Below, piece by piece: positions 63,369-64,000 of a stretch of DNA of 64,000 nt. The notes under the pieces are model-generated. The model did not search any database, was not told the DNA's origin, and saw nothing but the letters and a program-made list of their open reading frames with translations. The position numbers and the translations under genes are program-made. The stretch comes from an uncultured Gammaproteobacteria bacterium. GTDB lineage: Bacteria; Pseudomonadota; Gammaproteobacteria; JAURND01. Location of the stretch: NCBI GenBank assembly GCA_963714975.1, contig CAVQQD010000003.1, positions 1-64,000 on the forward strand, in the 5' to 3' direction. Position 1 is the first letter of the stretch. Every line of letters begins with the position of its first letter.

Positions 63369-63417
63369 CCTTAATAAAAAATTTGCTTTTCCTAAAAAGC
63401 CGGTGAATAATAGCGAT

Positions 63418-63900
63418 AACCGTGGGCAGTGCCCACGGCCGCGCCAAAAGAATGCTCAAACATTCTTGAGGCACTTCCGGCAACGAACCTTATAAGGAGG
63501 TCCGCAGTGGCTTTAGTAGCTTACTCGATTACGCATTCTCGTAAAACTCTTTTCTGTATGCTCGCCAATTTTTTTCACCTGCATTGCCTCGGGCGGATGT
63601 TTCACGCCTGGGCCAACAAATCCTTACTGAATGATTTTCCTCGCATGCCACAGCGGTGTTGCTGGCATCAGGTTGGGATTTGCCGTGGGTTTTTTAGTGG
63701 CCGACATGCAGGACAAGAGGAGGTAAGCTGGTAGCAGAGGAAATAGGTAGGGCGAACGAGCAGGTCATCCCGAGGAGCTTGCGACGAGGGATCTCTGTGC
63801 CAGTTTGCAGGAGATCCCTCGCCGTTGCTCGGGATGACCGTGCCTGTTCGCCCTCGCCTATAAAAACCCTCTGCTGCCGCTTCCTTGATTCGTTGTTCGT
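63418..63900 (+). ncRNA. Putative large structured RNA/leader of unknown class
   Basis: More than 10 nested helices with G-U pairs on the plus strand; putative promoter TTGCTT-17-AATAAT at 63383-63411. Confidence 0.5.
63764..63838. repeat. Complete family D REP-like element
   Basis: gtcatcccgag...gagggatctc...gagatccctc...ctcgggatgac. Confidence 0.88.
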
Positions 63901-63927
63901 TTCTTCTATAACTCCAGGAGCACACCC

Positions 63928-64000
63928 ATGAATGATAATAACATCAAACCCGCTTTTAAATGCTTTCGTCAACCAGGACATCGCCCTCCTCTCGTTGATA
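63928..64000 (+). CDS. Start of a gene running off the window
   Basis: AGGAG at 63916-63920, ATG at 63928, MNDNNIKPAFKCFRQPGHRPPLVD open to the edge. Confidence 0.5.
   Translation, partial: MNDNNIKPAFKCFRQPGHRPPLVD

Follow-up and report, generated by a model that had tools for sequence, protein, structure and literature searches.

PtaRNA1 (RF01811), an antisense RNA transferred on plasmids, belongs to a proposed type I toxin-antitoxin (TA) system that has a short toxin gene. In E. coli, the cis-antisense RNA SymR (RF01809) starts a few bases inside the frame and lies over the Shine-Dalgarno (SD) sequence and start codon of the mRNA for SymE, a toxin of ~113 aa (PF08845). Structured type I toxin mRNAs, such as those of hok/sok and of aapA1/IsoA1 of Helicobacter, have an SD that is sequestered by anti-SDs and a coding region that is closed by helices, and they occur in many copies. 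In the tnaC-tnaA, pheL and secM-secA leaders, and in the long-range coupling of RNA phage MS2, translation of an upstream frame controls a downstream gene. Here we analyse a structured RNA leader at the end of a 64,000-nt window (G000:C3:1-64000) of the genome of an uncultured gammaproteobacterium (2.56 Mb, three contigs). The leader holds an open frame of 75 codons and precedes a gene for a response-regulator receiver. Coordinates are window positions, "+" is the strand of the receiver gene, L-numbers denote leader copies or loci and G-numbers denote genomes.

We propose, with a probability that we put at about 0.45, that this is a structured leader which is translated and which descends from, or is related to, the mRNA of a type I toxin, and that it sets the output of the signalling gene behind it. 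The RNA family to which it belongs is well supported and takes up ~10 kb of the 2.56-Mb genome. Its members join a sense/antisense module in the style of TA systems, a long frame that is open yet apparently uncoding and a covarying fold of riboswitch size, and they stand ahead of candidate signal-synthase, kinase and receiver cassettes in an uncultured gammaproteobacterial order. An earlier reading of the window made from its letters alone (the sequence-only reading) had rightly recognised a large, multi-domain structured RNA or leader on the plus strand, with its own promoter and reaching the start of the next gene. It had missed the conserved, translated-looking frame of 75 codons, the roughly two dozen paralogues and the antitoxin-like antisense of the 5' end.

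The locus resembles PtaRNA1 in having a candidate antisense RNA opposite the 5' end of a short frame, which spans 67-79 codons here; the comparable gene of a Proteus integrative and conjugative element, as given in an excerpt of PMC11278526, has 225 nt (74 aa) and was named "ptaRNA1 family toxin" by the NCBI annotation pipeline. It differs in that the PtaRNA1 scores are sub-threshold (best 43.1 bits, in a sister genome) and that the peptide is unconserved, with no match to a toxin family. The frame of the leader moreover lies within a covarying domain of 200 nt, behind which come a long hairpin and a signalling gene in the same orientation, and we know of no description of these features at PtaRNA1 loci. 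As with SymR, the predicted antisense RNA would start a few bases inside the frame, and the SymR model scores 40.7 bits on locus L122, below its gathering score of 61; unlike SymE, no PF08845-type protein is encoded here, as judged by a Pfam scan. Like hok/sok and aapA1/IsoA1, the leader has an SD sequestered by a local and a downstream anti-SD, helices that close the frame and many copies per genome; unlike them, its peptides are neither hydrophobic nor conserved, no terminator follows the frame and the unit leads another gene.

As in tnaC-tnaA, pheL, secM-secA and MS2, it would be the translation of the upstream frame, not its product, that acts, through RNA structure or Rho. Unlike in those systems, the frame is much longer and has no conserved arrest motif or run of regulatory codons, and simple unmasking of the SD failed in silico. 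In size, in its several domains and in its strong covariation the RNA is comparable to OLE, GOLLD, ROOL, raiA and HEARO, from which it is distinguished by bearing a frame whose translation we infer, by its cis-linkage to a gene and by the lack of an Rfam match. In the open-access full texts searched we found no description of such a leader, and in titles and abstracts on leaders or riboswitches of cyclodipeptide synthases and on DUF3050 we found nothing relevant to an RNA. The unit is probably best described as the fusion of a translated structured leader with a sense/antisense module like those of type I TA systems; its sense RNA has no Rfam family.

A structured leader in about two dozen copies

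The leader in the window is one of about two dozen copies in this genome. Together with the next gene it forms a unit (63355-64460) that recurs at three other places with 84-93% identity, and the leader alone recurs at a dozen more places with 66-89% identity. Its parts in the window are the following.

63383-63411, + strand: sigma70-like promoter box TTGCTT-17-AATAAT, kept across close copies.
63420-63438, + strand: H1, GC-rich 5' hairpin CCGUGGG/CCCACGG, which reads on the minus strand as a terminator-like hairpin of the proposed antisense RNA.
63448-63467, + strand: H2, hairpin AAGAAUG/CAUUCUU, present in 16 close copies of this genome.
63470-63486, + strand: conserved single-stranded CA-rich segment, GGCACUUCC..CAACGA here and CCACAACAA in relatives (alignments A1 and A4).
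63487-63501, + strand: anti-SD/SD hairpin ACCUU/GAGGU with the strong SD AAGGAGG (63494-63500), from the minimum free energy (MFE) fold.
63507-63734, + strand: leader open frame of 75 codons with GTG start and TAG stop (63732-63734), kept open in relatives.
63518-63524, + strand: 5' strand of helix P2, AGCUUAC, whose partner is GUAAGCU at 63723-63729; the minus strand of 63518-63523 gives the -10-like TAAGCT.
63529-63544, + strand: P3, hairpin UUACGC/(U)CGUAA, within frame codons 8-13; it is helix 1 of the 28-sequence test described below.
63527-63726, + strand: central multi-helix domain (model R1, match of 201.8 bits), which holds the complementary pairs 63547/63705, 63588/63605, 63617/63676 and 63645/63663.
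63723-63729, + strand: 3' strand of P2, GUAAGCU, also part of an alternative extension pairing of 63720-63728 with 63879-63886.
63730-63878, + strand: long hairpin in the MFE folds, with the stop codon of the frame in its 5' strand; relatives have the same hairpin in other sequence.
63764-63838, no strand assigned: repeat of the repetitive extragenic palindromic (REP) type, inserted at the tip of the long hairpin.
63879-63927, + strand: pyrimidine-rich linker with AGGAG (63916-63920) ahead of the ATG; the modelled unpaired probability from SD to AUG is 0.63.
63928-64000, + strand, running on to C3:64425: start of the gene for a 165-aa single-domain receiver (PF00072, E 2.9e-21).
63405-63545, - strand: proposed antisense unit with a promoter-like site, namely -35-like TTTACG (63545-63540), a 16-nt spacer and -10-like TAAGCT (63523-63518).
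About 63511 down to about 63405, - strand: predicted antisense RNA of ~100 nt.

Sixteen intact close copies were aligned with MAFFT and not fitted to any model (alignment A1). A covariance model of the central 200 nt (R1) has 20 matches in this genome and finds the domain in four of the eight other genomes of the same family (G002, G004, G006 and G008), the eight being also all the other genomes of the order in the collection; it has no match in G001, G003, G005 and G007, two of which are just 63% complete. A second model, R2, covers the 5' 106 nt and, with just four base pairs, is mainly a sequence profile. It has 25 matches in this genome and nine in G002, and among the 149 further genomes drawn evenly from the class it matches two, G093 and G127, which belong to two other families. 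The relatives were detected by covariance models only: a plain DNA search of 40 relatives, with a copy lacking the REP as query, found nothing outside this genome. A pattern scan of genome contigs with two central motifs gave 47 single matches in unrelated taxa, which we took as chance.

The covariation that the sequence-only reading had proposed to test among homologous upstream regions was strong in the central domain. For A1, which is unfitted, RNAalifold gives 77 pairs, and compensatory double changes occur in 31 of these. When 28 sequences, 10 of them from other genera, were aligned to R1, double changes were present in 39 of 43 pairs and standard pairs filled 90.8% of 1091 cells, compared with 35-45% when partners were slid by 1-3 columns, and none of 500 shuffles reached any of five measures; these figures overstate independence, because the alignment is fitted to R1 and leans towards structure and because paralogues and sister genomes share ancestry, so that the counts are of non-independent events. 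G-U pairs on the plus strand, to which the sequence-only reading had drawn attention, are frequent in the covarying helices.

Among the individual helices of A1, H1 is paired in 94.6% of cells with three doubly changed pairs, H2 in 93.8% with three and P3 in 94.8% with four of its six pairs doubly changed; the long hairpin is paired in 82.8% and 95.9% of cells. H2 was not seen in sequences from sister genomes, nor in L118 and L119, two more diverged copies of this genome. P2 is paired in 83.9% of cells in the copies of this genome, with one-sided changes only, and is maintained in other genera by double changes (CAAUUUUAC/GUAAAUUG, CCAUUUUA/UAGAAUGG, CAGUUUAC/GUGAGCUG). Its 3' strand can alternatively lengthen the base of the long hairpin (63720-63728/63879-63886), an extension that is paired in 90.1% of cells with one doubly changed pair and that relatives form from other sequences with the same pairing. 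P2 and the extension are both kept, and therefore two mutually exclusive pairings are both conserved. In the central junction (63634-63640 in the window) an unpaired anti-SD-like motif, UCCUC (or CCCUC or CCUUC), is conserved between genera and could pair with an SD-like GGAG run as a pseudoknot.

All nine pairs of complementary segments that had been pointed out from the letters are present at the coordinates given, and the MFE fold of 63470-63930 (+) includes most of them. The two outermost, caacgaa/ttcgttg (P1) and aaggagg/cttcctt, are unsupported as structure. P1 was rejected as a feature of the family, with 60% of cells paired in 16 copies and, in those close copies that have it, a duplex no better than shuffles (z -0.1 to -1.6), and no 3' complementary strand was apparent when sister-genome sequences were read by eye. 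The aaggagg/cttcctt pairing competes with the local anti-SD hairpin, which is paired in 82.5% of cells across the 16 copies of A1 and is formed in relatives by different sequences, for example AAUCU/AGAUU and UAAGCU/AGCUUA.

The fold of 63470-63930 on the plus strand has an energy of -205.1 kcal/mol (z -8.96), and none of 100 dinucleotide shuffles was as good; the minus strand of the same stretch gives -185.2 kcal/mol (z -6.96). The fold also persists without the REP. A natural copy that lacks it (L017:259-699:-) reaches -169.7 (z -5.06, again 0 of 100 shuffles as good), with -149.9 (z -4.76) for its antisense, and because this paralogue still beats shuffles the leader fold is not made by the REP. 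In both copies the sense strand is more stable than the antisense by ~20 kcal/mol, as expected from G-U pairs. The REP does sit at the tip of one stem without breaking it (63764-63838, at the tip of the long hairpin). It has at least 20 further copies in the genome at 82-95% identity among the 40 of 64 candidates scored, and in other leader copies this tip bears a different repeat or none. The marks of a REP or REPIN, a short palindrome in many dispersed copies, were found for 63764-63838 only, and the remaining leader is not built of REPs.

These results bear on whether the palindromes might be kept at the DNA level, as in a miniature inverted-repeat transposable element, in stacked REPs or at one end of an insertion sequence (IS), and have no function as RNA. 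Such selfish or repeated DNA would account for some two dozen copies, several of them truncated or cut by an IS605-type element, for the REP inside the window copy and for a minus strand that likewise beats shuffles. However, the copies have no terminal inverted repeats and no transposase; they have diverged (66-93% identity) yet keep the promoter, the SD, the start, the open frame and the orientation to the downstream gene; G-U pairs favour the plus strand by 20 kcal/mol, and the fold persists without the REP. We consider a DNA-level explanation very improbable.

A frame that is kept open without a conserved peptide

An SD and an ATG or GTG at the same place, followed by a frame of 67-79 codons, are present in 26 of 27 members, the exception being one frameshifted copy; among copies found later, one has 51 codons, one is cut by an IS and the version in G093 has 33 codons. 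By parsimony on a tree of the 16 copies, stops were gained or lost three times in this frame, all in the frameshifted copy, compared with 34 and 25 times in the other two frames. Substitutions show no bias by codon position (285:220:260), and changed codons comprise 145 synonymous and 457 non-synonymous cases. The comparisons indicate that the frame is kept open by selection and that its peptide is not conserved, because stop avoidance is frame-specific while substitutions are equal across codon positions. A conserved SD and start with a frame that is open without conservation of the peptide is also what a regulatory upstream open reading frame would be expected to show.

The peptide itself has little in common with proteins. 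Identity to the peptide of the window falls to 9-29% in other genera, the composition is unusual (W 4.6%, C 4.7%, D+E 3.6%) and a Kyte-Doolittle 19-residue mean of 1.6 is reached by only three of 25 peptides. Neither Pfam nor, for 12 peptides at E<=1, NCBIfam contains a matching family. A profile search of 5.8 billion proteins returned just seven matches, three of them "hypothetical protein" entries from gammaproteobacterial metagenome-assembled genomes and the rest unnamed.

The conserved SD and start and the frame open in 26 of 27 members might also be read as an ordinary small-protein gene with an incidentally structured mRNA. Against this, the three codon positions take substitutions equally, compensating indels displace the frame against the nucleotide alignment, the composition is not protein-like and the seven database matches are all hypothetical or unnamed. 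We find a small-protein gene hardly credible here, less so even than selfish DNA, and for annotation this means that 70-codon "hypothetical proteins" of this kind probably do not function as proteins in their own right.

The 5' module resembles loci of type I antitoxin RNAs

On the antisense strand, the stretch of the 5' module that runs from the first hairpin to the start codon aligns to the full PtaRNA1 model (72 positions); the alignment takes in the complement of AUGGC, the SD, CCACAACAA and the GC hairpin and has GCGCUU at its end. Eight loci of relatives score 24-39 bits and G002 scores 43.1 bits, and two copies of this genome reach 21.2 and 18 bits with the expected position and orientation (gathering score 47 bits). 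The SymR match of 40.7 bits likewise falls on the antisense of the 5' module, that of L122. In leader copies and 5'-module loci the sub-threshold PtaRNA1 matches all lie opposite the frame and cover its SD and start; two matches, at C2:787549 of this genome and in G013, are unplaced. The former (C2:787549-787611, - strand) is the highest-scoring PtaRNA1-model match of this genome, at 26.1 bits, and is not a leader copy. From these alignments the 5' module would be related to the loci of PtaRNA1 and SymR, both type I antitoxin RNAs, with a resemblance that is sub-threshold.

A promoter for an antisense RNA can be predicted inside the frame. Within the first 80 nt of the frame, 24 of 26 members share the position of the best antisense sigma70-like site, which ends 11-12 nt into the frame. 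It consists of TTT(A/G)C(G/A), 16 nt, and then TAAGCT, TAAACT, TAAAAT, TATGCT, TACTAT or TACACT; this -10 varies in its middle but keeps the T, the A and the final T, and TA...T is retained even where P2 is not. The equivalent of H1 in copy L009 was flagged as terminator-like on the opposite strand, whereas that of the window was not flagged. The antisense of 63400-63512 folds into three hairpins (z -4.71).

The 5' module also occurs alone. A metagenome pattern scan for it found 18 loci, of which eight match R2 and none R1, and in seven of the metagenome loci the module lies ahead of a conserved protein of 83-95 aa without the full leader. Together with G127 (L123), these seven contigs (L138, L140, L143, L144, L149, L153 and L154) have the module, composed of a hairpin, CCACAACAACCU, an SD and AUGGCU, followed by a conserved acidic protein of 77-95 aa that begins MAHSSLNDP... 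and has no family match. At most of these loci a small membrane protein comes next, and the one that was scanned, that of L154, matched DUF6440. A BLAST search of plasmids with the 5' modules of L138 and L155 and with the 91-aa protein gave no match. The arrangement ahead of the acidic protein may be the ancestral form of the module.

The resemblance could also come from an autonomous type I TA locus, composed of a toxic peptide of 75 codons, an inert folded mRNA and a PtaRNA1/SymR-like antitoxin, to which the receiver is linked by descent through duplication of the whole unit. For such a locus speak the end-to-end, if sub-threshold, alignment to PtaRNA1 and SymR, the sequestered SD and the closing of the frame by P2, which recall the inert toxin mRNAs of hok and aapA1, the relatives' copies that stand alone and the multiple copies per genome, which are usual for type I loci. 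The "ptaRNA1 family toxin" gene of the Proteus element, as excerpted from PMC11278526, is in the same length class. But the peptide shows no purifying selection, with 9-29% identity across genera, no hydrophobic helix (19-residue maximum below 1.6 in 22 of 25 peptides) and no NCBIfam (12 peptides, E<=1) or Pfam match. No U-tract follows the long hairpin, where the scan called no terminator, and the genes behind it, DUF3050 with a kinase in three sister genera and cyclodipeptide synthase, kinase and receiver here, stand at a conserved distance with a conserved SD. We regard an autonomous TA locus as unlikely, if well worth keeping in mind.

Signalling genes follow the leader

AGGAG (63916-63920) and the ATG at 63928 are present, as had been noted, and open a frame of 165 aa (63928-64425) that encodes a single-domain receiver (PF00072). 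The gap between the stop of the leader frame and the SD and ATG of the signalling gene is ~190 nt. Behind other copies in this genome lie, in the fullest cassettes, a homologue of cyclodipeptide synthases (CDPS; match to PDB 5OCD, E 2e-54), a PQ-loop/PAS/HisKA/HATPase kinase, a receiver and a 168-aa protein; most of the other own copies precede bare receivers of 131-175 aa. The first codons of the window receiver are homologous to the start of the CDPS (MNDNNIKPAFK and MNPNKIKPVFK; window 63928-63999 and L009:3300-3384 (-)), and because these codons are common to both, the window gene looks like a deletion derivative. The junction suggests that a deletion fused the start of a CDPS gene to the receiver. 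In G002, G004 and G006 the leader precedes DUF3050 (E 1e-72 to 1e-80), behind which lies a PAS kinase in the one case scanned (L099). In G093, of another family of the class, a related 5' module (L122, G093:C91:1-1682, 76-669) is followed by a frame of 33 codons, a hairpin and then a csrA paralogue (PF02599, E 5e-21). The family has the properties of a generic structured cis-regulatory leader, namely compensatory structure, a fixed orientation and a fixed distance to the downstream gene.

The identity of the gene at 63928 also decides a claim of the sequence-only reading, which had seen in the RNA the partner of a reverse transcriptase (RT) or of an RNA-guided nuclease or recombinase. The one feature in favour of such a partnership is how large and complex the fold is. 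The adjacent gene is a receiver, and no RT, Cas-like or bridge-type enzyme was found behind the leader among the copies examined; the downstream genes identified are receivers, CDPS, kinase, DUF3050, the csrA paralogue and an unnamed 148-aa protein, and the only nuclease-type genes seen are IS605 TnpB-like open reading frames (ORFs) in two copies and a transposase-like ORF after a truncated copy. We give this partnership next to no credence. The same reading's statement that the RNA has no signature of tmRNA, RNase P or a group II intron holds, in that the sense RNA has no Rfam match: with 4227 families and E<=1, nothing was found on the sense strand of the window or of five further copies, and with permissive filters the window gave only chance-level matches of miRNA models on the REP hairpin (E 0.05-0.2).

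The variety of downstream genes further bears on a leader or non-coding RNA that is riboswitch-like or protein-binding, whose central four-helix domain would bind a ligand or regulator (CsrA or a signal of the cassette) and whose frame would be incidental or serve against polarity. The strong covariation, the conserved unpaired nucleotides of the junctions (U-tracts and UCCUC), the position ahead of signal-synthase and kinase cassettes and the related leader ahead of a csrA paralogue in G093 would all suit a binding domain. However, CDPS and DUF3050, which are unrelated synthases, and bare receivers all have this fold ahead of them, which speaks against a single specific ligand; a pure aptamer would leave the frame-specific stop avoidance and the conserved SD and start unexplained, and no Rfam family matches. 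We judge a pure binding leader somewhat less likely than the autonomous TA locus.

How the leader might work

If the leader is a translated derivative or relative of a type I toxin mRNA, as we favour, transcription would start at the conserved sigma70-like promoter and give an RNA with, in order, one or two 5' hairpins, the CA-rich stretch, the SD-sequestering hairpin, the frame of ~75 codons, the long hairpin, the linker and the signalling gene. The promoter that the sequence-only reading had postulated at 63383-63411 holds up by conservation: its box, TTGC(A/T)T, ~17 nt and AATAAT, is kept in all 16 close copies and found in 25 of 27 family members, and a consensus scanner called that of L009. 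The body of the frame would be the covarying multi-helix domain, and its stop would lie at the foot of the long hairpin, whose tip accommodates inserted REPs. An antisense RNA of ~100 nt, with its promoter in frame codons 4-13, and the local anti-SD hairpin would together limit the loading of ribosomes on the frame. Selection would maintain translation of the frame and not the peptide, and the passage of ribosomes would remodel or protect the leader and thereby set the output of the downstream signalling gene. Candidate routes for this coupling are Rho polarity on the pyrimidine-rich linker, mRNA stability and a switch between P2 and the extension of the long hairpin. The antisense transcript, the translation of the frame and the coupling are predictions. 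Were the coupling true, it would show how toxin mRNAs get recruited as regulators of ordinary operons and would offer a handle on the regulation of CDPS/kinase systems.

Several results weigh against this proposal. The consensus scanner called no sense promoter in the window, where the -35 matches in 3 of 6 positions, and it left the antisense promoter of the window uncalled too. No PtaRNA1 match reaches the gathering score in the 151 genomes of the class sample, no SymR match reaches its own, and the window's copy has no match to either at E<=1, perhaps owing to its extra hairpin H2. L101 and L102 have no co-oriented gene behind the leader, and because some relatives' copies lack such a gene the module can stand alone. 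The fitting of the 28-sequence alignment to R1 and the shared ancestry of its members belong here as well. The most direct form of coupling, in which translation of the frame unmasks the main SD, was rejected: by partition function, the unpaired probability from SD to AUG in the window is 0.63 in the free RNA and 0.62 with the frame melted, and over 23 copies the means are 0.39, 0.44 and 0.39, with 10 copies up, two down and 11 unchanged.

A bolder form of the proposal is that the domesticated toxin-type mRNA constitutes a new class of translated riboregulator, in which the four-helix domain within the frame senses a ligand or protein and, with the PtaRNA1-like antisense RNA, gates ribosomes. 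The sensed partner could be, for instance, the cassette's cyclodipeptide, the DUF3050 product or the output-less receiver. If this were true, each of about twenty signalling cassettes would have its own autoregulatory RNA switch. We hold it to be doubtful, a shade more so than a pure binding leader.

Neighbouring sequences and rearrangements

In a segmental duplication that extends past the end of the window, C3:63355-67000 and C3:72302-77744 share the leader-receiver unit and the ~2.5 kb that follow it (89-93% identity); the second copy contains ~1.8 kb of additional DNA. A 402-aa IS605 TnpB-like ORF (MKIQ.AFKFRIEPNGAQ...) is inserted in two copies of the unit: in L132 (G000:C1:102300-104200) it cuts the leader itself, and in L026 (G000:C3:470270-471080) it truncates the receiver gene just behind the leader. 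Just upstream of the leader in the window lie two paralogous ATPase-like ORFs of 490 and 410 aa (59959-61431 and 61776-63008, + strand), and the gap between them holds short, ORF-free, GC-rich stretches that resemble further REPs.

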